A stretch of 64,000 nucleotides of DNA from Candidatus Lloydbacteria bacterium RIFCSPHIGHO2_02_FULL_50_18. GTDB taxonomy: Bacteria; Patescibacteriota; Minisyncoccia; Phycocordibacterales; UBA6899. The notes beneath the pieces are model-generated. The model did no database searches and was not told where the DNA came from. It saw only the letters and a list, made by a program, of their open reading frames with translations. The position numbers and the translations under genes are program-made. The stretch lies in the NCBI GenBank assembly GCA_001821395.1, contig MHLM01000012.1, positions 1 through 64,000 of the forward strand, in the 5' to 3' direction. Positions 14,180 through 44,070 of the stretch are shown here, in pieces. How positions within the stretch are numbered: position 1 is the first letter of the stretch; the number at the start of each line of letters is the position of its first letter.

Positions 14180-14207
14180 GAGAAGTTACGTATACAAAAC
14201 ACCCTCA

Positions 14208-15050
14208 CTATTTTTCGTGAGGGTGTTTTGTATGACTTGAGATTTTCTTAGTAAGCCACATCCATGTTCCGATCGGCAGATCCTCTCCCCGTGCTTTTTT
14301 ATCAATACTGAGCTCGTCAAAGTACTCAATTATCTTGTCTTTATGTATACCTAATCCCTCTGAAAGATTTCCGACGAGCATTTTTCGTTTCGCGCGAAAA
14401 CCGGCCTTGATGAGGGTGAAGAATTCTTTTTCAGTAAAATCTTCGATCCTTTGTTTGCTGATATTGGTGATCATGAGGATCGCAGAATCGACCTTTGGCA
14501 CCGGATCAAAGGATTCCTTTGGGACCGTTGCAACATATACCGGGTCACCAAATATCTTAATTGAGAGTGAAAGGATCGTCTCTTTTTTGTTGCGCGAGAC
14601 GATCTGCTCCGCGACCTCTTTTTGTACGAGGAAGGTGAGCTGTGAAGGAGCACGGTGTTCCTCGAGAAAATAGCGGAAAAGCATTCCGGTAATGTAATAA
14701 GGAATGTTGGCGACGACTTTATATGTCGGCACATTACCGAGTAGTTCATCAAATAATTCCCGCGTAATATTTTTTTCCAGAATGTCGCCTTCTAAAAGTA
14801 TTAGGTGACCATCGCGAAGCGCATCAGCAAATCGGTCAGTAAGAATGGGGATGCAGCGCGTATCCTTTTCAATCGCGATCACATGAGCCCCAGCGTTCAA
14901 GAGGGCATTCGTGAGCGCCCCTTCCCCGGGGCCGACTTCAATGACGATGTCTCCGGGGAATATACCGGATGCATCAATGATCTTTTCAATGGTCGTTTCC
15001 GAGCGGAGAAAATTCTGTCCTAATGATTTTTTTGCTTGAATATTTTTCAT
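14208..15050 (-). CDS. rsmA: 16S rRNA (adenine1518/1519-N6)-dimethyltransferase
   Basis: KKSLGQNFL and VIEVGPGEGALT are the KsgA/RsmA signatures. Start taken at the internal Met MKNIQAKK. Confidence 0.85.
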   Translation of the reverse strand: MKNIQAKKSLGQNFLRSETTIEKIIDASGIFPGDIVIEVGPGEGALTNALLNAGAHVIAIEKDTRCIPILTDRFADALRDGHLILLEGDILEKNITRELFDELLGNVPTYKVVANIPYYITGMLFRYFLEEHRAPSQLTFLVQKEVAEQIVSRNKKETILSLSIKIFGDPVYVATVPKESFDPVPKVDSAILMITNISKQRIEDFTEKEFFTLIKAGFRAKRKMLVGNLSEGLGIHKDKIIEYFDELSIDKKARGEDLPIGTWMWLTKKISSHTKHPHEK

Positions 15051-25847: not shown

Positions 25848-26070
25848 AAGTGTGGCGATTCGCGGATCTTGATGAATTTCTTCGCTGTCTTCACGTCAAG
25901 GTCCCTAAGAACTTACGGTGAGTAAGTCTGGAGAGCCCCGCTCGGCTCGACGCCTCGAACTTCATTCAAGATCTACAAAACGTTAGTTATAAAAAGTAAT
26001 CAAACGTTTATAAAAATGTGCGAACAGTAGATAGATTAAATAATGCGGTCTCGAAAATTCTCACACAAAA

Positions 26071-26103
26071 AATAATAATGCACGCTTGTCGTGCATTATT
26101 ATT
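26071..26103 (-). terminator. rho-independent terminator after rpsO
   Basis: AATAATAATGCACG-loop-CGTGCATTATTATT perfect stem followed by a T-run on the coding strand. Confidence 0.55.
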
Positions 26104-26367
26104 TTACTTGATTCCTAATTTCTTGACGAGTGAGTTGTACTTTGCCTCACTCTTCTTTTTTAAATATTTGAGGTGGGCACGGCGGTCAGAAACCATTTTG
26201 AGCAAACCGCGGCGTGAATGATTGTCCTTCTTGTTCTCCTTCAGGTGCGCTGCAAGCTCATTGATCTTTTGACTTAAAATAGCGATCTGAACCTCCGGAG
26301 AACCGGTATCGGTATCGTGACGCTGGGTTTTGGCCATAACGACCTGCTTTTTCTTTGCTGTTAACAT
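26104..26367 (-). CDS. rpsO: 30S ribosomal protein S15
   Basis: [59 protein letters not shown] matches the S15 consensus. Start trimmed to MLTAKKK. Confidence 0.85.
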
Positions 26368-27006: not shown

Positions 27007-27948
27007 ATGGACTTACATGAGTGGAAAAAACATTTTCTTGAATACACGGAAATAGAAAAAGGAAGAAGTATTCATACGGTAGAAAATTATGATCGCTATT
27101 TGACGCGTTTTCTTGAATATTCGAAGCTGACGCAGCCGTCGGATATTACCTATGACGTCGTCCGTGAATACCGTCTTTGGCTCAATAGGCAGCTCGCAAC
27201 GGAGTCGCGTCGGGGGGTTCCGGAAACTACATTAAAAAAGCGGACACAGAACTATTATCTGATCGCTCTTCGCGCATTCCTGAAATATTTGATGCGTCAG
27301 GGTGCTGAAAATATCATGTCGCCGGAGAAGATCGAGCTCGCAAAAGTTTCAGAGCGTGAATTAGACCTGATATCCACACAGGATCTTGATCGTCTGCTCA
27401 TGGCCCCACGGGGTGATACGCTTGTTGCGCTTCGCGATACAGCGATACTGGAATTATTATTCTCCACCGGTCTGCGTGTATCTGAATTGTGCGGGCTGCC
27501 ACGCGACTTGGATCTTTCCCGCGATGAGTTTTCCGTGCGGGGAAAGGGTGAAAAGGTGCGTGTCGTATTTTTGTCCGAGACGGCGAAAGCAGCACTGAAG
27601 GCTTATCTTCACAGAAGGACAGATGTTGATGACGCCCTTTTTGTGCAGGTGGGCCGCGGCGGAGAACGATCCCAAATCAAAAAAGAAGGTTCGTTAAGGC
27701 TTACTTCCCGTTCCGTGGAACGCCTTGTGAAACACTATGCAATAAAGTCAGGAATCTCAAAAAAGGTCACCCCTCATGTTATTCGTCACAGTTTTGCCAC
27801 TGACCTATTGGAAAATGGGGCCGACCTTCGTTCCGTGCAGGCGTTATTGGGGCATGCAAATATTGCCACCACGCAGATATACACACATGTGACTGATAGC
27901 AAACTTCGTGAAGTGCATAAGCTGTTTCACGATAAGCGCAAAAGGTGA
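27007..27948 (+). CDS. tyrosine site-specific recombinase, XerC/XerD family
   Basis: C-terminal catalytic block HVIRHSFATDLLENGADLRSVQALLGHANIATTQIYTHV (R..H..R..Y). The N-terminal SAM-like domain has the conserved W/Y residues. Confidence 0.9.
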   Translation: MDLHEWKKHFLEYTEIEKGRSIHTVENYDRYLTRFLEYSKLTQPSDITYDVVREYRLWLNRQLATESRRGVPETTLKKRTQNYYLIALRAFLKYLMRQGAENIMSPEKIELAKVSERELDLISTQDLDRLLMAPRGDTLVALRDTAILELLFSTGLRVSELCGLPRDLDLSRDEFSVRGKGEKVRVVFLSETAKAALKAYLHRRTDVDDALFVQVGRGGERSQIKKEGSLRLTSRSVERLVKHYAIKSGISKKVTPHVIRHSFATDLLENGADLRSVQALLGHANIATTQIYTHVTDSKLREVHKLFHDKRKR

Positions 27949-29851: not shown

Positions 29852-31339
29852 CTACTTCACTCCATATTTCTTGCGTATGGCACTCACCTCACCTTTTTCC
29901 TCCGCTTCTTTTTTCTCCTTACCCGCTTCTCCGAGTTGCTCAAGCTCCCTTCTCGGAAGCGTGTAGAGTGCTATCGCTCGTTGTTTAAGATAGTCAGCCG
30001 TGTTCTTTTCGGGATTATCAAGCACTTCATTGAAGAGTGCATGAAGTATCCATCCTATTTCCCGCCCCGGCTTCAAGTTGGCTGCGCTCATTATTCCCGC
30101 ACCATCGATTTTCAGCATACCCACCGATACCGGTGCACGCATTGCTTCCTCGATCATTGAATGATATTTGCGTAGTCGATAGGGGGTTTCTTTCGGACGC
30201 CCCATTCCGATACGGTCGCAGGCACGCACGTTCATGAGATCCCACACAAGTTCGGGTCCCACATGCGCAACGATGCGTCGTACTGCAGAGAGCGTAATCT
30301 TCTCAATATCGGAAAAAAATAAATGATAACGCACTAGCGTCGAGACGTCATGAATGAATTGCTTCGGAAAACGCAAGCGTTCAAGAATTTTTGCCGCCAT
30401 GCGCCCTCCGACGACATCGTGCCCGTAGAACGTCCAATCTTTCTTTTCGTCCGACCACTTACGCGTGTGGGGCTTCCCAACATCATGGAGTAACGCCGCG
30501 ATGCGCACGTGGAGCGGCCATCCCCTTTCTTTTGCATGCTGCAGAGCGCGCAGGTTATGTTCCCACACTTCATAGATGTGGTCGCCATTTTGCTCGCATC
30601 CAATGCCTGCCTCGAGTTCCGGTGCGATATATTTGAGTACCCCCGTTCTATTGAGCAGAACGATACCCTCCATGGGGCGATCCGACATGATGATCTTGAT
30701 GAACTCGTCACGAATGCGTTCCCCCGCGATGTGTTCAAGTCGGTGCGTAAATTTTACGACCGCATCCATGGTCTCTTTCTCGATGGCAAAGCCGAGCTCT
30801 GCGCCAAAGCGCACCGCGCGCAGTATGCGCAACGCGTCCTCGTGAAAACGATCTTCCGGCGCACCTACGGTTTTTATCAAATGGCGTTCGATGTCTTCTT
30901 CCCCTCCGTAGGGATCGATGATCATTCCTTGTGAAACATTGTACGCGATAGCATTCATGGTGAAATCGCGACGCTGTAGATCATCAGTAAGACTGCCGGA
31001 GAATGCAATCTCATCAGGATGGCGAAAGTTTGAATAGGCGCTTTCTTTGCGATATGGGGTCACTTCGACGATGCGCATGCTTCCCCGCTCCGCATCGTCT
31101 TCTGCGATGTCTTCATTGACGACGCCCACTGTTCCGTAATCATTCTCATAAAATGTTTTTGGGAAAAGTGCGATGATCTCTTCCGGCTTCGCGTTCGTTG
31201 TGACATCCCAATCCTTTGGCTTGACCCCTCGGTAAAGATCACGAACGCAACCACCTACGAGATATGCTTCATAGCCGGCTGCTTCGAGCGTTTTATTGAC
31301 CTGTGATATTTCGGGTGGAATAGTAAAGTGTTTCTGCAT
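29852..31339 (-). CDS. cca: CCA-adding tRNA nucleotidyltransferase with HD domain
   Basis: LVGGCVRDLYRGVKPKDWDVTT polymerase-beta-like head. HD motif LLHDVGKP. 495 aa. Confidence 0.85.
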   Translation of the reverse strand: MQKHFTIPPEISQVNKTLEAAGYEAYLVGGCVRDLYRGVKPKDWDVTTNAKPEEIIALFPKTFYENDYGTVGVVNEDIAEDDAERGSMRIVEVTPYRKESAYSNFRHPDEIAFSGSLTDDLQRRDFTMNAIAYNVSQGMIIDPYGGEEDIERHLIKTVGAPEDRFHEDALRILRAVRFGAELGFAIEKETMDAVVKFTHRLEHIAGERIRDEFIKIIMSDRPMEGIVLLNRTGVLKYIAPELEAGIGCEQNGDHIYEVWEHNLRALQHAKERGWPLHVRIAALLHDVGKPHTRKWSDEKKDWTFYGHDVVGGRMAAKILERLRFPKQFIHDVSTLVRYHLFFSDIEKITLSAVRRIVAHVGPELVWDLMNVRACDRIGMGRPKETPYRLRKYHSMIEEAMRAPVSVGMLKIDGAGIMSAANLKPGREIGWILHALFNEVLDNPEKNTADYLKQRAIALYTLPRRELEQLGEAGKEKKEAEEKGEVSAIRKKYGVK

Positions 31340-31389
31340 GACTCTATTATATAGGATTCACAATTATTGGAATGGTTGGATTCACGAAA

Positions 31390-31503
31390 GAAATATTCGC
31401 CAGGAATTTCGACCCCTACTGGGTCAGTACCTCATTCCCATTTTTCAGATTAAGAAATCTTCAAAAACATGGTAATGGGCTTCGAATCCTGTCGAAGCTG
31501 AAG
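31390..31503 (-). repeat. tRNA-3'-associated structured element (Arg copy) plus degenerate duplicate of the tRNA-Arg 3' end
   Basis: Read on the minus strand: GGATTCGAAGCCC...TTTTTGAAGATTTCTTAATCTGAAAAATGGGAATGAGGTACTGACCCAGTAGGGGTCGAAATTCCTGGCG. It is homologous to the elements at 32048-32150 and 35191-35302. Confidence 0.5.
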
Positions 31504-31543
31504 CAGTTCAGCTTCTCGGGAGCACAACTCGCTTCGCTCTTTG

Positions 31544-31615
31544 TGCTCCCGCCAGGATTCGAACCTGGAATAACTGCTTCGAAGGCAGTCGTGATATCCA
31601 TTTCACTACGAGAGC
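31544..31615 (-). tRNA. tRNA-Arg (anticodon TCG)
   Basis: Manual cloverleaf: acceptor GCTCTCG/CGGGAGC, D-stem GTGA/TCAC, anticodon stem ACTGC/GCAGT with loop CTTCGAA, T-arm CCAGG-TTCGAAT-CCTGG. Confidence 0.85.
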
Positions 31616-31731
31616 GTACTTTGTATTAAAGCAGATGATCAATGATAAAGCACGGCCAATAGAGATGAAGCGCTTGAAGGATGTATCCCTGTTTGCCATT
31701 TTCGTGTGAATTCGTTAGTATTGGTCCACAA

Positions 31732-31805
31732 GCGGGTATGGTTTAGTGGTAGAATACGTCCTTGCCAAGGATGAGACGGGAGTTCGATTCTCCCTACCCG
31801 CACCA
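31732..31805 (+). tRNA. tRNA-Gly (anticodon GCC), CCA encoded
   Basis: Acceptor GCGGGTA/TACCCGC, anticodon loop TTGCCAA, T-arm GGGAG-TTCGATT-CTCCC, 3' ACCA. Confidence 0.9.
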
Positions 31806-31828
31806 GGGTTGAGTGAAGCGGAAGTTAG

Positions 31829-31888
31829 CAAATCGTGAAATAGCAAAAATAACGAGATATCTCGTTATTTTTGCTATTTCACGATTTG
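31829..31888. repeat. 60-bp perfect palindrome immediately downstream of tRNA-Gly
   Basis: CAAATCGTGAAATAGCAAAAATAACGAGAT|ATCTCGTTATTTTTGCTATTTCACGATTTG has exact dyad symmetry. Confidence 0.7.
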
Positions 31889-32047
31889 TAACGATTTCCA
31901 TTTCCGAAAATCGCCGTGCGAGGAAAACTCTGCTTACCCGCATTAATTTTGCACTGTGCATGGTTTAAGGAAAGAAATCGTTCCGCCTCACTCAACTCTG
32001 TTGTTTCATATGCAAGCCTGTTTGGAAGTGTTTTGCCCCACTTCCGT

Positions 32048-32150
32048 GGGAGAATCGAAGCCTTTTCCCTTATTTTTGAAGGATTCATATCCTGAAAAAA
32101 TGGGAAATGGGCACTGAAACTGTAAGTTTCGATTCTCCCTACCCGCACTA
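32048..32150 (+). repeat. tRNA-3'-associated structured element (Gly copy) followed by a duplicate of the tRNA-Gly 3' end (att-like)
   Basis: GGGAGAATCGAAGCC...TTTTTGAAGGATTCATATCCTGAAAAAATGGGAAATGGGCACTGAAACTGTAAG, then TTTCGATTCTCCCTACCCGCACTA (compare the tRNA 3' end TTCGATTCTCCCTACCCGCACCA). Confidence 0.55.
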
Positions 32151-32310
32151 GGAACGAGCGTGATAAAAGGCCCTTCATAGGGCTTTTTATCACCGAGTGA
32201 CGACGTGCGGGAGGCTTTGCCTACGCGCACTAGGATGAACAACGAGCGTGATAAAAGGCCCTTCATAGGGCTTTTTATCACCGAGTGACGACGTGCGGGA
32301 GGCTTTGCCT
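32144..32310. repeat. tandem direct repeat (2 units of about 85 bp), each unit carrying a bidirectional terminator-like hairpin
   Basis: The unit CGCACTAGGA(TGAAC)AACGAGCGTGATAAAAGGCCCTTCATAGGGCTTTTTATCACCGAGTGACGACGTGCGGGAGGCTTTGCCTAC occurs twice. The hairpin is AAAAGGCCC-TTCAT-AGGGCTTTTT. Confidence 0.6.
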
Positions 32311-32496
32311 ACTCAGCAGTCATTTTTGATCAACTTGAGCTTTTGGTGTGCTGCTCACAAAGAATATACGTTTTTTATGAAATACAGGTAAATGCAAAGC
32401 ATTTTCTCCTTAAAAAATTAAACGTCGGCAATAAAATATTTTTTCTGAAATTCGTCAATAATTCCTAAAATATGTGATTTTAAGCATTTTTTGAAC

Positions 32497-32544
32497 TTAT
32501 CCACACCTGCTGTGCATAAAAACTGTGGATAAGTCTGTGGAAAG
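32497..32544. promoter_or_regulatory. cluster of DnaA boxes (three matches to TTATNCACA plus one 7/9) beside an AT-rich tract
   Basis: TTATCCACA at 32497-32505. TGTGCATAA at 32511-32519 and TGTGGATAA at 32524-32532 are reverse-complement boxes. TGTGGAAAG sits at 32536-32544. The stretch 32380-32490 is highly AT-rich. Confidence 0.5.
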
Positions 32545-32706
32545 TGGGTATAAAGGACATTATAATGACTTTTATTATGTCCTTTAGGAATTTGATTGAG
32601 GGCGGCGTTGTGCCGTTTCACGGAAAGCAAAGAATTAATGTTACTACGTAACAAATTAAGCAACAGTACAATATATCTGACTTGAATAACGTAAATTGGG
32701 TTTCAC

Positions 32707-33126
32707 ATGAAACTGAATAGTGAGAAACTTGAAAAAATGGGACAAATTACTGAAAAACAGCAAATAGGGAGGACCGGAGAGGATATTGCATGCTTGTTTC
32801 TCGTGAAACGTGGCTTTCAAATCGTTGAGCGTAATTTTTGGAAGAAGGTCGGTGAAATAGATATTATTTGCACAAAAGAGGAAAAATTTTACTTTGTTGA
32901 AGTAAAAACGATCGTAAAAAGAGGTGTTTCACGTGAAATGAGCGATAATTATCGTCCAGAAGATAATCTGCATGCTCAAAAGATCGTTCGACTTGGAAGA
33001 GCAATTGATATTTACCTTGAAGAGCAAAATATTGATGGTGATTGGGAAATACTTGGGGTCATGATAATTATTGACCCAAAGACTAAGATTGCAAAAGTGT
33101 CGCTTTTGGAAAATTTCGCCTGGTAG
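32707..33126 (+). CDS. YraN/UPF0102-family endonuclease
   Basis: GEDIACLFLVKRGFQIVERNFW...GEIDIICTKEEKFYFVEVKT matches the YraN signature. Confidence 0.7.
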   Translation: MKLNSEKLEKMGQITEKQQIGRTGEDIACLFLVKRGFQIVERNFWKKVGEIDIICTKEEKFYFVEVKTIVKRGVSREMSDNYRPEDNLHAQKIVRLGRAIDIYLEEQNIDGDWEILGVMIIIDPKTKIAKVSLLENFAW

Positions 33127-33403
33127 TCTTTTCACGTGAAACATAATGAACGAGAAGGATGACGGACCCAGGTCATAAGGTCGTTTTGTCTATTATGGGT
33201 GTTTCACGTGAAATCCTGCCTCAAATCTGTCTTGATCATCGCTTTGTTTTTGCGGTTTTATGTTTAGTGAAAGATAACTACAAAGTATAAATGAGCATAG
33301 CGCTGCTTGGGGATTACTCTTGAATTTTTTATGAGTATAATATGGAAAAGACAATCTTTATGAACAGGTTGCGTAGTTTAAAATTCTATGATATAATATT
33401 TCC

Positions 33404-34835: not shown

Positions 34836-34946
34836 GGTGTTGATCAGCGTCTGGTGAAAAACATCCCATATTCGATGGGGTGTTTTTATTATCGCAAACG
34901 AGATAGTTGCCCTAATTTGAATTTTAAGCTACTCTTGCGACACGAC

Positions 34947-34983
34947 CGAAGTATATCGGGGCGTGGTGTAATGGCTAACATGT
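34947..34983 (+). pseudogene. tRNA-Pro 5'-half pseudo-copy (degenerate duplicate upstream of the intact gene)
   Basis: CGGGGCGTGGTGTAATGGCTAACATGTCTGGTTTT is near-identical to the 5' half of tRNA-Pro at 35047. The anticodon loop is disrupted (TTTTCAGGATAGAGA) and the T-arm is missing. Confidence 0.5.
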
Positions 34984-35046
34984 CTGGTTTTCAGGATAGA
35001 GACCAGATGACAAGAGACAGCGTGACGTAGTGAGGAAGAAGTATAT

Positions 35047-35119
35047 CGGGGCGTGGTGTAACGGCTAACATGTCTGGTTTGGGACCAGATGACTCCGGGT
35101 TCGAATCCCGGCGCCCCGA
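35047..35119 (+). tRNA. tRNA-Pro (anticodon TGG)
   Basis: Acceptor CGGGGCG/CGCCCCG, anticodon stem TCTGG/CCAGA with loop TTTGGGA, T-arm CCGGG-TTCGAAT-CCCGG. Confidence 0.9.
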
Positions 35120-35163
35120 CTAAATAAAGAAAAGACCTTCAAGGAGGTCTTTTCTTTATTTAG
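35120..35163 (+). terminator. long AT-rich hairpin immediately 3' of tRNA-Pro
   Basis: CTAAATAAAGAAAAGACC-loop-GGTCTTTTCTTTATTTAG perfect 18-bp inverted repeat. Confidence 0.45.
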
Positions 35164-35190
35164 TCGAAGGCGCGAGGAGCACAGCTCCGA

Positions 35191-35302
35191 GAGGGATTCG
35201 AAGCCCTTCTCCCATATTTATGAAGGATTCTTATCCTGAGTAAATGGGAAAGGGGTACTGACGCAGTAGGCGTCGAAATTCCCGGCGCCCCGACTAAATA
35301 AA
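35191..35302 (+). repeat. tRNA-3'-associated structured element (Pro copy) followed by an exact duplicate of the tRNA-Pro 3' end plus 11 nt (att-like)
   Basis: GAGGGATTCGAAGCCCTTCTCCCATATTTATGAAGGATTCTTATCCTGAGTAAATGGGAAAGGGGTACTGACGCAGTAGGCG, then TCGAAATTCCCGGCGCCCCGACTAAATAAA. Confidence 0.55.
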
Positions 35303-35476: not shown

Positions 35477-36058
35477 GTGAAGAATCCCGAATACGAAGAA
35501 GGTGGACATGATGAAAAAAAAGACCTATTCCTTTTTGAGTTGGACGGGGATCTTTACGCTGTACCCGTTGAACTCGTCGATCGAGTAATGAAAATACCTC
35601 CGATCACTCCGATCCCCAATGCGCCGGCGGCAATTGTTGGTATCTTCCACTTGCGCGGAAAGGTCGTTTTGACCCTCGACCTCTCAAGTCGTATGGGTAT
35701 TTCCAGAATGAAGCCCTTAAGTCAAAACTTTCTTTTTGTCGTGCGGTATAAAAATGATCAGTTCGCCATTTTGATCGATACACCTAAGGTCATTGTACAC
35801 ATCCCAGCGAGCGAAATTCATCGTCCCGACTCCATTCTTACGGCCCGATTATCACCGCAATATGTCCAGGGAACCTTCATGTTTCAGGAGGTAACAAAAG
35901 TGAAAGTCCCTAATCATTCGATCTTCATCGAGCATATTGGTGGGGTTGACCGGAGGCCTGAAGAAATTCCACCATCACTTCGACCGGTACTCCTCCTTGA
36001 CCTTGAGCGAGTCCTTGACCAGGAGGATCTTCAGCACATGTTTATTTCACAGGAGTAA
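35477..36058 (+). CDS. cheW: chemotaxis coupling protein CheW
   Basis: CheW-like domain LFLFELDGDLYAVPVELVDRVMKIPPITPIPNAPAAIVGIFHLRGKVVLTLDL. Confidence 0.8.
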   Translation: MKNPEYEEGGHDEKKDLFLFELDGDLYAVPVELVDRVMKIPPITPIPNAPAAIVGIFHLRGKVVLTLDLSSRMGISRMKPLSQNFLFVVRYKNDQFAILIDTPKVIVHIPASEIHRPDSILTARLSPQYVQGTFMFQEVTKVKVPNHSIFIEHIGGVDRRPEEIPPSLRPVLLLDLERVLDQEDLQHMFISQE

Positions 36059-36079
36059 AGTCTATGGTACAATTTTAGT

Positions 36080-36442
36080 ATGGCAAAGGATATAAAAATA
36101 CTTCTTGTTGATGACTCAGCTTTTATGCGTAAGGTATTGCGTGACATCTTTGAAAGTGCCGGATATACGAATTTCATAGAGGCGGGAAATGGAACAGAAG
36201 CGATCCAAAAATTCAGAACAGAGAAGCCCGATTTTATCTTTCTTGATATCATCATGCCTGACGTGAACGGTATGGATGTACTTCGTGAGATCGGGAGCGA
36301 AGCGAAGGTCATCGTCGTATCGGCGGTTGGACAAAAGGATGTGATCGAGCAGGCAAAAACACTTGGTGCACTCGATTACATCGTAAAGCCTTTTGATCGT
36401 GATCAGGTGCTCGAAAAGGCCCAGCGGCATTTCGGTCAGTAA
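36080..36442 (+). CDS. cheY: chemotaxis response regulator CheY
   Basis: 120-aa single REC domain KILLVDDSAFMRKVL...DFIFLDIIMPDVNGMDVL...KP with the phospho-acceptor Asp. Confidence 0.85.
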   Translation: MAKDIKILLVDDSAFMRKVLRDIFESAGYTNFIEAGNGTEAIQKFRTEKPDFIFLDIIMPDVNGMDVLREIGSEAKVIVVSAVGQKDVIEQAKTLGALDYIVKPFDRDQVLEKAQRHFGQ

Positions 36443-36456
36443 GTAGCCCGACACGC

Positions 36457-37566
36457 TTGGTCAAATGTTTCATGAATAGTCAACCAACCGAAAAGATCCG
36501 TGTACTTATTGCAGATGATTCTTTTTTTATACGCACCTATCTTCAGGAGGTATTGAAAGCAAGTGAATCGATCGAAGTCGTTGGGCTTGCTTCATCGGGA
36601 ATCGAAGTAGTTGAGTTGGCACGTAAATTAAAACCCCATGTGATCACGATGGATTATCACATGCCGGGAAAAAATGGAATTGAAGCAACCGCAGAGATTA
36701 TGCGTGATGATCACCCGCTTCCGGCAATCATCATGCTTTCTGCTTTCGAGGGGGATGATGGCGAACATGTTCGAAAGACCCTTTTGTCCACCGGTGCCCA
36801 TGTGATCGAAAAACCGTCGGGAGAAGTGTCTCTTGATATAGAAAAGATTGCACGCACTATCGTACAACGGATCGAGGAGGTCGGGTGGACCGAAGTACGC
36901 ATGCGACACTCCTTTGCCCGCATGAAACACACTAGGGAACGAAGCCTAAATGGGCAGGATCGCACACTGCCATTTTCGGGGGTTGTCGTGATCGGTGCGT
37001 CTACCGGTGGGCCATCCTTGGTTGAAGGTTTGATCAAGTCGTTTGATCAGTATCACGGAATTTCGATCGTGATAGTTCAGCACATGTCTGCATATTTTAC
37101 TTCGCTGTTTGCTGAGCGGCTCGGACACGTTACCTCATTCCGTGTTTATGAAGCAAAGAGCGGAGACGTTCTTCTTCCGAACGATGCCCTCGTTGTCCCC
37201 GGTGGTTCTTTTTTGTTACCTACTTCGCTACCGGGTTCCCCGATGTGCAGCTTTGATATTATCGAAAGTGAAACTCATGCACCGGAGGCGCAGATCGACA
37301 ATTCGATGCGCGCGATAGCCGCTTGTTACCAGGGACCAATCGCCGGCGTATTACTTTCCGGAATGGGAAATGACGGAGCCGTCGGACTGCACGCACTGCG
37401 ATTGCGTGGAGGACTTTGTCTTGCGCAGGATCCGGAAACAGCACCGGTGCGTTCTATGCCGGCGCATGCGATTGATAGCGGTGAGGCAGTCGGAGTGCGG
37501 ATAGAGGATATCCCCGAACGTATCATGAGTCATTTTCGTCGACCATCACCGTCACGGCTTGCGTGA
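36457..37566 (+). CDS. cheB: chemotaxis protein-glutamate methylesterase CheB (REC + CheB_methylest)
   Basis: N-terminal REC (IRVLIADDSFFIR). C-terminal VVVIGASTGGPSLVEGLI, HMSAYFT and a GMGNDGAVG-like catalytic region. Confidence 0.85.
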   Translation: MVKCFMNSQPTEKIRVLIADDSFFIRTYLQEVLKASESIEVVGLASSGIEVVELARKLKPHVITMDYHMPGKNGIEATAEIMRDDHPLPAIIMLSAFEGDDGEHVRKTLLSTGAHVIEKPSGEVSLDIEKIARTIVQRIEEVGWTEVRMRHSFARMKHTRERSLNGQDRTLPFSGVVVIGASTGGPSLVEGLIKSFDQYHGISIVIVQHMSAYFTSLFAERLGHVTSFRVYEAKSGDVLLPNDALVVPGGSFLLPTSLPGSPMCSFDIIESETHAPEAQIDNSMRAIAACYQGPIAGVLLSGMGNDGAVGLHALRLRGGLCLAQDPETAPVRSMPAHAIDSGEAVGVRIEDIPERIMSHFRRPSPSRLA

Positions 37567-39250
37567 TATAATCAACCATATGCCGTTGAACATGAATAAG
37601 TATAAGGATCTCTTCTGCGCGGAAGCAGAGGAGCAGCTTGCAATACTCTCTCGTTTATTGCTTGTGCTTGAGAAATCAACAAACCACATGGAATACCATG
37701 AGGAGTTAATGCGCAGCGCACACACCATCAAGGGTGCCGCTGCGACAATGGGGTATGCTTCAATGGCAGAACTTGCTCATGCGGTTGAAGATATTTTTCA
37801 TGCAGCCGAGCGGGGTGCCCTTGTGGTTGATACACGGATCATTACACTATTGCTCTCAGCGATCGACCTCATGACGCATTCACTCGCCTCGATCAAGAGT
37901 AGTGACGTTGAACTTCCCAGTAAGGAAGTTGTTGATAAATTGAAAAAAATTCTTGAAGAAAATGCCGGTGTACAGACCGTTGTTCCGCAAGAAAAAACCG
38001 GTACTGATGTTCAGCAATTGCATATCGTCACTCCGGATACCATCAAGGTTAGTGTCGAAAAACTCGATACATTAATGGGGCTATTTGAGGAAATGTTGAT
38101 GCTCAGACTGAAGGCAAATTCAATGATCGAGCCTGCTGTGGAATTTGTTCGGACGACGACTGACCCTGTATTGAAGCAGCAATTATTCTTCATTGCCGAG
38201 CTCGAGGCATTGTTTGCAGAACTTGCGCGGCTCATGACTGAGCATCAAGACGCTCTTCTTGCTATTCGCCTCGTTCCCCTTGAACAGATCTTCGGCCAGT
38301 TCCCTCGTATGGTGAGGGATCTGTCGGTGCGAGAAGAAAAAGCGATCGAATTTTTTGTTGAAGGTGGAGATATCGCCTTAGACCGTACCGTGATCGAGGG
38401 CCTTGGCGGTGCACTAGCGCATCTTCTTCGCAATGCGGTCGACCACGGGATCGTTTCACGTGGAACAATATCTCTTTCGGCGGTAAGGGAAAAGGGACGC
38501 GTACGGATCTTTGTGGAGGATTCGGGCGCCGGGATCGATTATGGGCGGGTCAAAGAGGTGGCAACGGCTCAAGGGGTAGGCACGAGTGAAGAGATCGCAC
38601 TTATGGGAAACGAACAGCTCGCAGAATTATTGTTTCATCAAAATATGTCGACCAACAAAGTGGTGACGGATATTTCGGGAAGAGGAGTTGGTCTTGCTGC
38701 GGTGCGCGGGTTTGCTGAGGATGTCGGAGGACGCGTTGAAGTCATTTCTCCCATTCCGGAAATAGGGAAGGGGACCCGCTTTGTTCTTGATCTTCCGATC
38801 TCTCTTGCAACAGTGCGCGTGCTCGTCGTGCAAGCACGAGGGTACACATTTGCGATACCTTTCGATCATGTCATTAAAACACTTCACTTTGAAACGCGGG
38901 AGGTCGGTGACGCGGCGCATCAGGAAACACTTTTTCTCGACGGGACATTGTTGCCGCTGATGCATCTCGATAAAATTCTCAAACTATCATACGGTTCCGC
39001 TCCATCTCCGGAACATTCTCGAACCGCGGTGTTGATCCGAACGGGAGAGAAAACATTTCTTCTCGAAGTAGATGCGTGCACGGGTGAACAAGACCTATTG
39101 ATCAAATCGCTTCCTCCGGTTCTCCGTAATAATAAGGGATTTTCAGGCTCAGCGCTTCTCCCGGACGGACGAACAATATTATTACTCGATGGCCATGGTT
39201 TACTCATACAAGCAATAGACGATATACTGAACACCCAATCATTATCTTAA
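37559..39250 (+). CDS. cheA: chemotaxis histidine kinase CheA
   Basis: HPt motif HTIKGAAATMGY, HATPase_c HLLRNAVDHGI ... GRGVGLAAV, and a C-terminal CheW-like domain. Confidence 0.85.
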   Translation: MRDIINHMPLNMNKYKDLFCAEAEEQLAILSRLLLVLEKSTNHMEYHEELMRSAHTIKGAAATMGYASMAELAHAVEDIFHAAERGALVVDTRIITLLLSAIDLMTHSLASIKSSDVELPSKEVVDKLKKILEENAGVQTVVPQEKTGTDVQQLHIVTPDTIKVSVEKLDTLMGLFEEMLMLRLKANSMIEPAVEFVRTTTDPVLKQQLFFIAELEALFAELARLMTEHQDALLAIRLVPLEQIFGQFPRMVRDLSVREEKAIEFFVEGGDIALDRTVIEGLGGALAHLLRNAVDHGIVSRGTISLSAVREKGRVRIFVEDSGAGIDYGRVKEVATAQGVGTSEEIALMGNEQLAELLFHQNMSTNKVVTDISGRGVGLAAVRGFAEDVGGRVEVISPIPEIGKGTRFVLDLPISLATVRVLVVQARGYTFAIPFDHVIKTLHFETREVGDAAHQETLFLDGTLLPLMHLDKILKLSYGSAPSPEHSRTAVLIRTGEKTFLLEVDACTGEQDLLIKSLPPVLRNNKGFSGSALLPDGRTILLLDGHGLLIQAIDDILNTQSLS

Positions 39251-44004: not shown

Positions 44005-44021
44005 CGAATGCTTCTTGTACT

Positions 44022-44049
44022 AAAAAACCCGCCATAAGGCGGGTTTTTT
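44022..44049. terminator. bidirectional rho-independent terminator between the convergent genes 43435-44004 and hup
   Basis: AAAAAACCCGCC-ATAA-GGCGGGTTTTTT. Confidence 0.65.
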
Positions 44050-44070
44050 AGTGTATGTTTGATTCACTGC

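Follow-up and report, generated by a model that had tools for sequence, protein, structure and literature searches.

Bidirectional Rho-independent (intrinsic) terminators, which are said to have been described by Ju and colleagues in Nat Microbiol in 2019, are stem-loops at the end of a transcription unit, with an A-tract before and a U-tract after the stem, in which both strands encode a terminator. Perfect palindromes of some tens of base pairs (bp) are known from protelomerase target sites, such as telRL of phage N15. A third system for comparison is provided by tRNA genes that serve as attachment (att) sites. The fourth is quasipalindrome correction by replication template switching, which can render an imperfect inverted repeat perfect (Ripley model; Lovett laboratory; PMC7202029). 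The present analysis concerns a 60-bp perfect palindrome located behind a tRNA-Gly(GCC) gene of the uncultivated Candidatus Lloydbacteria bacterium RIFCSPHIGHO2_02_FULL_50_18. The stretch analysed, referred to below as the window, comprises the first 64,000 nucleotides (nt) of contig MHLM01000012.1. Judged from its sequence, the palindrome is probably a terminator-type hairpin of the tRNA-Gly(GCC) unit and is best read as a two-way intrinsic terminator, with a confidence that only modestly exceeds even.

The palindrome shares with bidirectional terminators the stem-loop, both flanking tracts, and the position at the end of a transcription unit. It differs from them in that its arms measure 30 nt instead of about 5-14 nt and are paired to the ends and through the centre, its inner stem is G+C-poor, no convergent gene faces it, and its symmetry extends beyond functional need. 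Like protelomerase sites, it is perfect and some tens of bp long; however, both of its flanks are unique, continuous chromosomal DNA in four assemblies, and there is no sign of a linear replicon end, although no search aimed at a protelomerase gene was made. As at tRNA-gene att sites, the neighbourhood contains copies of tRNA 3' ends (Gly, Arg, and Pro), joined to a conserved 80-nt module. The palindrome, however, lies neither at a junction nor in a repeated core, it persists without the duplicated tRNA end in a close relative (locus L110), and the intervals between the repeats, only ~130-345 bp long, hold no integrase or cargo. Quasipalindrome correction offers a one-step route to multi-base changes, which fits the mirrored block substitution and the missing G.U intermediates described below (PMC7202029). 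It is known, however, as a mutational hot-spot mechanism in E. coli, T4, and yeast reporters, and not as the long-term keeper of a 60-bp natural palindrome.

The palindrome consists of CAAATCGTGAAATAGCAAAAATAACGAGAT followed by ATCTCGTTATTTTTGCTATTTCACGATTTG and forms an exact 30+30 inverted repeat without spacer or mismatch. Its outward extension stops at the next pair, G31828/T31889, which is not Watson-Crick. With up to three mismatches allowed, the 30-nt arm occurs at just these two places in the window, and 100 shuffles returned no occurrence. The loopless inverted repeat reported in an earlier note on this DNA is thus confirmed, and the window contains no further copy. The single-strand DNA fold of the palindrome has an energy of -29.9 kcal/mol (z = -13.9 relative to shuffles), and the RNA fold including the flanks reaches -64.5 kcal/mol (z = -11.4). 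The same note had placed the palindrome directly after tRNA-Gly. It is indeed the first hairpin behind that gene, but the wording is approximate, as 23 nt lie between the tRNA 3' end (31805) and the start of the palindrome.

The anatomy of an intrinsic terminator can be recognized in the inner part of the palindrome (Table 1). A stem-loop with G-C pairs is present; it is weak in the window, while the stems of the orthologues are longer, with 7-9 pairs (for example GGACGAGAA/TTCTCGTCC in locus L015 and AGGAGTGAA/TTCACTCCT in locus L099). Directly 3' of the stem lies a U-rich tract, of which TTTTGC is invariant in five of five orthologues and TTTTTGC (mirror GCAAAAA) in four of five. The layout in the window is ACGAG-ATAT-CTCGT followed by UAUUUUUGCUAUUU, that of L015 is GGACGAGAA-A-UUCUCGUCC followed by UUUUUGCUAUU, and an A-tract lies upstream. 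The position at the 3' end of a transcription unit is found in the window and in the orthologues alike. Because the symmetry is perfect, the minus strand also encodes a stem and a U-tract. The complementary A-tract upstream of the stem, expected of a bidirectional terminator, would supply the U-tract of a minus-strand transcript, and its GCAAAA(A) is invariant among the orthologues.

Transcription from the tRNA promoter would proceed through the tRNA and its 23-nt trailer. With the polymerase positioned on TATTTTTGC (31866 onward), the inner stem would then fold and the transcript would come free. Because the palindrome is its own reverse complement, a polymerase on the minus strand would meet the same stem and U-tract, and the tRNA would be insulated from antisense read-through. 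In read-through RNA, the full 30-bp duplex may add a processing or stability stem. These proposed steps build on what was observed directly, namely the anatomy, the position, the conservation pattern, and the class membership of the palindrome.

Table 1. Features of the palindrome locus and of its surroundings in the window.
Feature	Positions	Strand	Basis or remark
tRNA-Gly(GCC) gene, CCA encoded	31732..31805	+	ARAGORN; Rfam tRNA 68.7 bits
Promoter-like site of tRNA-Gly	31693-31721		promoter scan
Segment S (~193 bp), conserved tRNA-Gly trailer enclosing the palindrome	31806..31998	+	homologous in L110, L101, L015, L099/L098
H1 5' arm GGGTTGAGTGAAGCGGAA	31806..31823	+	pairs with 31981-31998
60-bp perfect palindrome (30+30, no spacer)	31829..31888	.	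sequence; covariation in five orthologues
A-rich tract AAATAGCAAAAATA, mirror of the T-tract	31838..31851	.	alignment, per-pair table
Inner stem-loop ACGAG-ATAT-CTCGT (5 pairs, 3 G-C, loop 4)	31852..31865	.	read from sequence
T-rich tract TATTTTTGCTATTT, directly 3' of the inner stem	31866..31879	+	five-orthologue alignment
Conserved 3' flank AACGATTTCCATTTCCGAA..GCCGTGCGAGG..GCTTACCCGCA	31890..31942	+	alignments, RNAalifold helices
H1 3' arm TTCCGCCTCACTCAACTC	31981..31998	+	
80-nt element E_gly with tRNA-Gly 3' duplicate (duplicate 32128-32152)	32048..32152	+	context, outside the palindrome unit
E copy behind tRNA-Arg	31396-31494	-	
E copy behind tRNA-Pro	~35196-35300	+	
88-bp tandem unit	32153-32312		
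Perfect A-tract/G+C stem/T-tract hairpin	14192-14233		between convergent open reading frames
Perfect A-tract/G+C stem/T-tract hairpin	44019-44052		between convergent open reading frames
Perfect A-tract/G+C stem/T-tract hairpin	26069-26105		between two co-oriented open reading frames
Perfect hairpin 22+6+22	35117-35166		starts inside the tRNA-Pro 3' end
XerC/D-type recombinase gene	27007-27948		
CCA-adding enzyme gene	29852-31339	-	
UPF0102/YraN-type gene	32707-33126	+	predicted nuclease
Chemotaxis cluster	35477-39250		CheW, CheB-type methylesterase, CheA-type kinase

Orthologous palindromes of 60-63 bp with perfect arms were found in four other Lloydbacteria lineages, and every one of them starts 22-24 nt past a tRNA-Gly 3' end. 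The closest relative, L110 (Logan SRR22388057, from the same sample as a CCA-adding enzyme 95% identical to that of the window), has a 30+2+30 arrangement with the arm GCAAGGTACAAAATAGCAAAATAAACGAGA. Two further orthologues are arranged as 31+1+31: L101 (JGI Ga0255338), which lies behind tRNA-Gly(CCC) and has the arm GCAACACAATAAAATGCAAAAAGAACGAGAT, and L015 (JAYUQG01, CCA enzyme 80% identical), with the arm ACAATACAACCAATAGCAAAAAGGACGAGAA. The last, L099 (JGI Ga0120147, CCA enzyme 84% identical), is arranged as 31+31 with the arm GCAAAATAACAAAAAGCAAAAAAGGAGTGAA; downstream of the palindrome, its row in the comparison is a composite of two contigs from near-identical strains (L099/L098). Among the contigs of the closest relatives, L093 (CCA enzyme 95% identical, P0001) ends short of the locus, and P0002 (CCA enzyme 92% identical) lies on a 1.7-kb contig and was left out of the comparison.

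The alignment of the five orthologues comprises 30 arm pairs, and all 150 cells are paired. Sixteen of these pairs have changed on both sides (27 cells), and a G.U pair occurs in a single cell, the outermost aligned pair of the window. None of 500 shuffles scored as high, and slid registers were just 43-53% paired. The invariant parts of the arms are the outer CAA/TTG, GCAAAA with its mirror TTTTGC, and pairs near the centre (alignment columns 66, 68, and 69). Between the outer CAA/TTG and GCAAAA lies a hypervariable block of 6-7 nt. In this block, the window has ATCGTG and L110 has GGTACA; all six positions differ, and the change is mirrored in the opposite arm. Between these two lineages the flanks are ~90% identical, the arms 73%. 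The central stem pairs and GCAAAA/TTTTGC appear to be what a terminator requires, while the outer arm is variable but always paired.

The palindrome is enclosed by segment S, which always begins right behind a tRNA-Gly 3' end, either of the gene itself or of a displaced copy. Among 111 loci, S occurs exclusively behind tRNA-Gly; the isoacceptor is GCC at most of the loci that have S and CCC in L101. Its ends form an 18-nt inverted repeat, H1, which is complementary at 16 of 18 positions in the window and at 18 of 18 in L101. H1 is also perfect in the L099/L098 composite, with two compensated changes, and it is degenerate in the window, L110, and L015. The 3' flank of the palindrome holds degenerate copies of the tRNA-Gly acceptor 3' strand, one inverted (31916-31923) and one direct (31932-31942). 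In the RNAalifold model, the palindrome is surrounded by H1 as an outer helix and by two small hairpins, and the G.U pairs of these small helices are valid on the plus strand alone. An alternative is a longer, imperfect hairpin that would reach from the acceptor end of the tRNA as far as GTGC at 31916-31919; its helices are mostly conserved without covariation (by eye), and one of them is broken in L110.

The distribution of the palindrome among relatives follows a pattern of redundancy. Where it stands directly behind the tRNA (window, L110, and L101), no other hairpin lies between them. Where a different hairpin, T1, stands behind the tRNA, the palindrome is displaced (L015 and L099), deleted (L098 and L103), or absent (L013, L016, and L111). 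This pattern fits a replaceable terminator function. L098 and L099 have an identical CCA enzyme, but L098 is without the E element, the tRNA duplicate, and the palindrome except for its last 7 nt. The deletion, ~230 bp long, runs between two TTTTTGTT repeats, one after T1 and one in the right arm of the palindrome (L098 2460-2470 compared with L099 1-260). The difference between the two contigs shows rapid module turnover within a population. L103-L105 retain only the 3' part of S, L103 representing an independent partial deletion, and the 3' flank is retained in both L098 and L103 despite the loss of the palindrome. S is absent from L013, L016, L094-L097, L106-L109, and L111. Termination requires no more than the inner stem and the U-tract, and the outer two thirds of each arm are dispensable for it.

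Hairpins of this kind are common in the clade. The window itself contains three perfect hairpins with an A-tract, a G+C stem, and a T-tract between genes, and one that starts inside the tRNA-Pro 3' end (Table 1). Upstream of that tRNA-Pro gene, a partial, interrupted copy of its own 5' half was observed (34946-35010). A census was made over 886 kb from 81 Paceibacteria genomes (loci L013-L092 and the window), which contain 225 tRNAs. It yielded 281 perfect hairpins with arms of at least 10 nt, compared with ~10 after shuffling; 106 have arms of at least 14 nt and ten have arms of at least 24 nt. A perfect hairpin starts between -14 and +30 from the 3' end of 45 of the 225 tRNAs, and six of the ten longest hairpins (arms of at least 24 nt) are located at tRNA 3' ends. 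Examples are a 32+32 zero-loop palindrome that overlaps tRNA-Gly(TCC) in L044 and a 25+5+25 hairpin that overlaps tRNA-Arg in L013. Because such palindromes are common in the clade and enriched at tRNA 3' ends, the tRNA-Gly palindrome is the long end of a continuous, ordinary class and not a singular object. A literature search on tRNA palindromes in the Candidate Phyla Radiation (CPR) found nothing specific.

The apparent concerted evolution of the arms is the sole part of the pattern that goes beyond the ordinary. Many arm changes are AU/UA or CG/GC flips without a G.U intermediate. Unlike the palindrome arms, the spaced repeat H1 close by has decayed in the normal way in three of the five lineages, and the symmetry of the palindrome runs through the centre in four of the five orthologues. 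In the census, zero-loop palindromes make up 34 of 172 hairpins with arms of at least 12 nt, compared with 14 that have a loop of 2, an excess that is not predicted by the requirements of an RNA hairpin. The zero-loop centres are mostly ATAT, TATA, or GATC. In several tRNA-adjacent palindromes, the distal arm is an inverted copy of the constrained tRNA 3' end. From these patterns, the exact 60-63 bp symmetry, including the centre, appears to be kept by DNA-level copying between the arms during replication, and template switching or fold-back priming would perfect the arms here. A broader proposal can be formulated on this basis, although it is tentative and on balance doubtful. In this proposal, Paceibacteria would actively keep long tRNA-trailer palindromes symmetric by fold-back or template-switch copying of DNA, through which the tRNA 3' end could likewise be carried into the distal arm, and the palindromes would evolve in concert and faster than their flanks. 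The ~60-bp tRNA-Gly palindrome would then be more than a terminator, namely a functional duplex under length constraint, in which the ends and the centre are conserved and a paired block is hypervariable.

Among the options listed in the earlier note, the extremely stable terminator is the one favoured here, in view of the position behind a tRNA, the invariant inner stem and T5GC, and the occurrence of the class at gene and tRNA ends. A recombination site and a replication-related hairpin are not supported, and membership of the inserted mini-element is contradicted. Several points nevertheless weigh against the two-way terminator. The inner stem of the window, with 5 pairs of which 3 are G-C, is weak. 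A simple consensus terminator scan of the window missed the palindrome, whose T-rich tract lies inside the 30-bp arm and not after it. Neither a convergent gene nor a convincing minus-strand promoter was found facing the palindrome, which gives no indication that two-way action is needed: the next downstream gene is on the plus strand, and the sole minus-strand promoter-like match (32392-32363) is separated from the palindrome by other hairpins. Termination also leaves unexplained the 30-bp arm length, its conservation at 60-63 bp, and the conserved outer GCAA/TTGC around a hypervariable block. The constant length and the outer GCAA/TTGC leave room for an extra role that the full duplex may have. 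The copying between arms, for its part, was inferred from patterns in five related, non-independent sequences, one of which is composite (L099/L098).

The palindrome could instead be a functionless by-product, that is, a short tRNA terminator that has grown by repeated fold-back or template-switch copying and persists because the lineage tolerates long palindromes. The evidence for dispensability points this way: the palindrome was lost in L098, whose CCA enzyme is that of L099, and partly and independently in L103, and many close relatives have no such segment. The zero-loop excess and the inverted copies of tRNA 3' ends in distal arms also agree with growth by copying. A by-product would not be expected, however, to retain 60-63 bp in five diverged lineages together with an invariant stem and T-tract and the outer GCAA/TTGC. 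Moreover, in three lineages the palindrome is the first downstream hairpin directly behind the tRNA, which suggests that it is used there. This explanation is therefore considered unlikely.

A role at the RNA level, in which the tRNA-Gly trailer would be structured and a 30-bp stem in its three-way junction would serve for RNase III-type processing or for stability, is judged quite unlikely. The RNAalifold model with H1 and the small hairpins would provide such a junction, and the compensated changes of H1 in L099/L098, the plus-strand-only G.U pairs, and the constant length of 30-31 bp, which resembles a duplex "ruler", are consistent with it. However, H1 is degenerate in three of the five orthologues, and its 3' partner would remain untranscribed if the inner stem and the U-tract terminate transcription upstream. 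A helix selected as RNA should also tolerate G.U pairs, yet only one of the 150 cells contains one. Finally, no Rfam family matches the palindrome: in Rfam 15, two tRNAs alone pass the gathering threshold, and at a permissive threshold only sub-threshold microRNA-precursor models, that is, generic hairpins, fall over it.

The palindrome could also be a DNA site of a mobile or integrative element, for example a cruciform, resolution, or binding site, in which case S would be a small foldback element with tRNA-Gly 3' ends as its target. The 18-bp terminal inverted repeats of S agree with a miniature inverted-repeat transposable element (MITE) or foldback element, and S is present, partly deleted, or absent among close relatives and occurs behind two isoacceptors. 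The region also contains several partial tRNA 3' copies, as is typical of integration hot spots. The dispersed copies expected of such an element were not found, however: there is one copy in 64 kb, and a scan of 241 million metagenome records (JGI metagenome contigs) with the 3' flank of S returned two real loci and one apparent chance match, L102, without tRNA and without palindrome. Within the window and these contigs, S is consequently not a multi-copy element. Four scans of viral contigs returned no copy of the palindrome, and none of S or of the 80-nt element E; because S and E were not found there, no phage or attP source is indicated. No target-site duplication or flanking direct repeat was seen. 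The arm sequence is also not conserved like a protein-binding site, as pairing alone is conserved. Overall, a mobile-element site is an improbable explanation.

The earlier note had pointed to an att-like duplicate of the tRNA-Gly 3' end, and this duplicate is real (25 nt, 24 of 25 identical). It is part of E, a family of 80-100-nt elements located ~50-350 nt downstream of tRNA-Arg, tRNA-Gly, and tRNA-Pro. Each element consists of an inverted local copy of the T-arm, a conserved interior (..TCGAAGCC..TGAAGGATTC.TA.CCTGA..AATGGGAA..ACTGA..), and a direct copy of the 3' end of its own tRNA. In addition to the three copies of the window, E was found in L013 (5362-5478), L015 (5018-5132), L016, L019, L020, L098, L099, L103, and L111. 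In their layout, these elements resemble the attR-type junctions that very small, integrase-free insertions (~130-345 bp) would leave. The order of the modules is tRNA-Gly, T1, E, tRNA 3' copy, and S with the palindrome in L015 and L099; tRNA-Gly, S, spacer, E, and tRNA 3' copy in the window; and tRNA-Gly, S, and then directly part of the 88-bp unit in L110. From these three orders it follows that S is tied to the tRNA-Gly 3' end and that E with the duplicate is the indel. A module that stays at the tRNA while E and the duplicate come and go argues against S as a mobile element. It also contradicts the claim that the palindrome belongs to the inserted mini-element, since L110 has tRNA-Gly and the palindrome without E or the duplicate. 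Nor is the palindrome always between the tRNA and the duplicate, as it lies beyond the duplicate in L015 and L099. Around the same genes, an ~80-nt inverted repeat formed by two E elements (31409-31488 and 32052-32132) brackets both tRNAs in the window. Beside the CCA-enzyme gene, tRNA-Arg(TCG) and tRNA-Gly(GCC) occur, among related Paceibacteria, in all four strand combinations and in swapped order (L013-L039 and L094-L109; equivalent to 31340-32160 of the window), which indicates that single tRNA genes have been inverted repeatedly.

More specific links to recombination and replication were also considered and rejected. A recombination or cruciform resolution site, as suggested in the earlier note, is not supported, as the arms are poorly conserved, the palindrome does not mark the boundary of an element, and its presence does not co-vary with that of any recombinase. 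Beside the CCA-enzyme gene, the XerC/D-type gene is found in relatives with and without the palindrome. A link to this Xer-type recombinase or to the UPF0102/YraN-type predicted nuclease was rejected because both genes occur in palindrome-free relatives. A replication-related hairpin fares no better: the cluster of DnaA boxes 640 bp away is kept in many relatives without the palindrome, and no clear indication of an origin emerges from gene orientation or GC skew. A repetitive extragenic palindromic (REP) or bacterial interspersed mosaic element (BIME) type of repeat was discarded as well, since these repeats are short, imperfect, and present in many copies, whereas the palindrome is perfect, 60 bp long, and single-copy in the window. 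A relation to the 12-mer palindrome TTTCACGTGAAA, half of which (CGTGAAAT) is held in the outer arm, was taken as coincidence because that block is replaced in the closest relative, L110.

The assembly support of the palindrome, which the earlier note had left to be checked, is good. Four independent metagenome assemblies (JGI 3300002502 and ENA ERZ4903055, ERZ4903070, and ERZ27254756), all of the same species, contain the palindrome without any difference, and over 31340-32710 their contigs share 99.9-100% identity with the window. Three short contigs (L008, L009, and L010) start inside the palindrome, and de Bruijn assemblers often break at palindromes. A chimeric assembly artefact, to which these three breaks might point, is very unlikely, indeed close to negligible, because identical sequence with unique and different flanks was recovered in four independent assemblies from different samples, diverged yet perfect orthologues exist in four other lineages, and the broken contigs reflect the usual behaviour of de Bruijn assemblers; as far as assemblies and orthologues can show, it is excluded. 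The sole difference among same-species contigs over that range is the presence of one or two copies of the 88-bp unit. This unit includes a degenerate copy of the tRNA-Gly 3' end and a small hairpin of terminator-like form. L003 and L009 have a single copy of the unit, whereas the window and most of the assemblies of this species have two, which reflects either copy-number polymorphism or assembly collapse. The exact CCA-enzyme protein was also found on Rifle-type groundwater metagenome contigs, and its nearest GTDB relatives (one genome per species), at no more than 84% identity, are Candidatus Lloydbacteria and other Paceibacteria metagenome-assembled genomes.

The window is chromosomal DNA that encodes, in addition to the genes in Table 1, PNPase, ribosomal protein S15, and a Nudix protein. 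A 36-bp stretch contains three DnaA-box-like nonamers, one on the plus strand (TTATCCACA at 32497) and two on the minus strand (TTATGCACA at 32511-32519; TTATCCACA at 32524-32532). After them, in the region 32497-32590, come a conserved hairpin, TAAAGGACA..TGTCCTTTA, and (by eye) GTTACTACGTAAC. The stretch of boxes and hairpin (~32510-32594) has BLAST matches in more than 30 distantly related Paceibacteria loci and no Rfam match; it may represent a region that resembles an origin or is regulated by DnaA, or else a non-coding element that has not been described before. The motif TTTCACGTGAAA, with at most one mismatch, occurs five times around or inside the UPF0102 gene (32697-33214) and eight times in the window, compared with 0.4 expected. 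Related motifs are present at the same place in relatives, as palindromes in L054, L055, L062, and L098 and as single sites in L015 and L111, and they sometimes form the outer part of longer palindromes. The chemotaxis cluster was found here in a CPR genome, and the neighbouring CheW gene is also present on the related contigs L003 and L111.

Taken alone, the palindrome is an ordinary terminator-like hairpin, and its possible importance lies in the pattern behind it. On the practical side, such palindromes break short-read assemblies beside tRNA genes, as in three contigs here, and they can pass for mobile-element or recombination sites. In these bacteria with tiny genomes, the hairpins that trail tRNAs are perfectly symmetric over as much as 50-64 bp. 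Turnover of their sequence leaves this symmetry intact, and the hairpins can be lost through small deletions that set near-identical strains apart. Long palindromes of this kind are unstable in model bacteria, and the pattern hints that the present organisms put up with them or may even produce them. If the pattern is true, it would be a natural example of concerted palindrome-arm evolution in bacteria.

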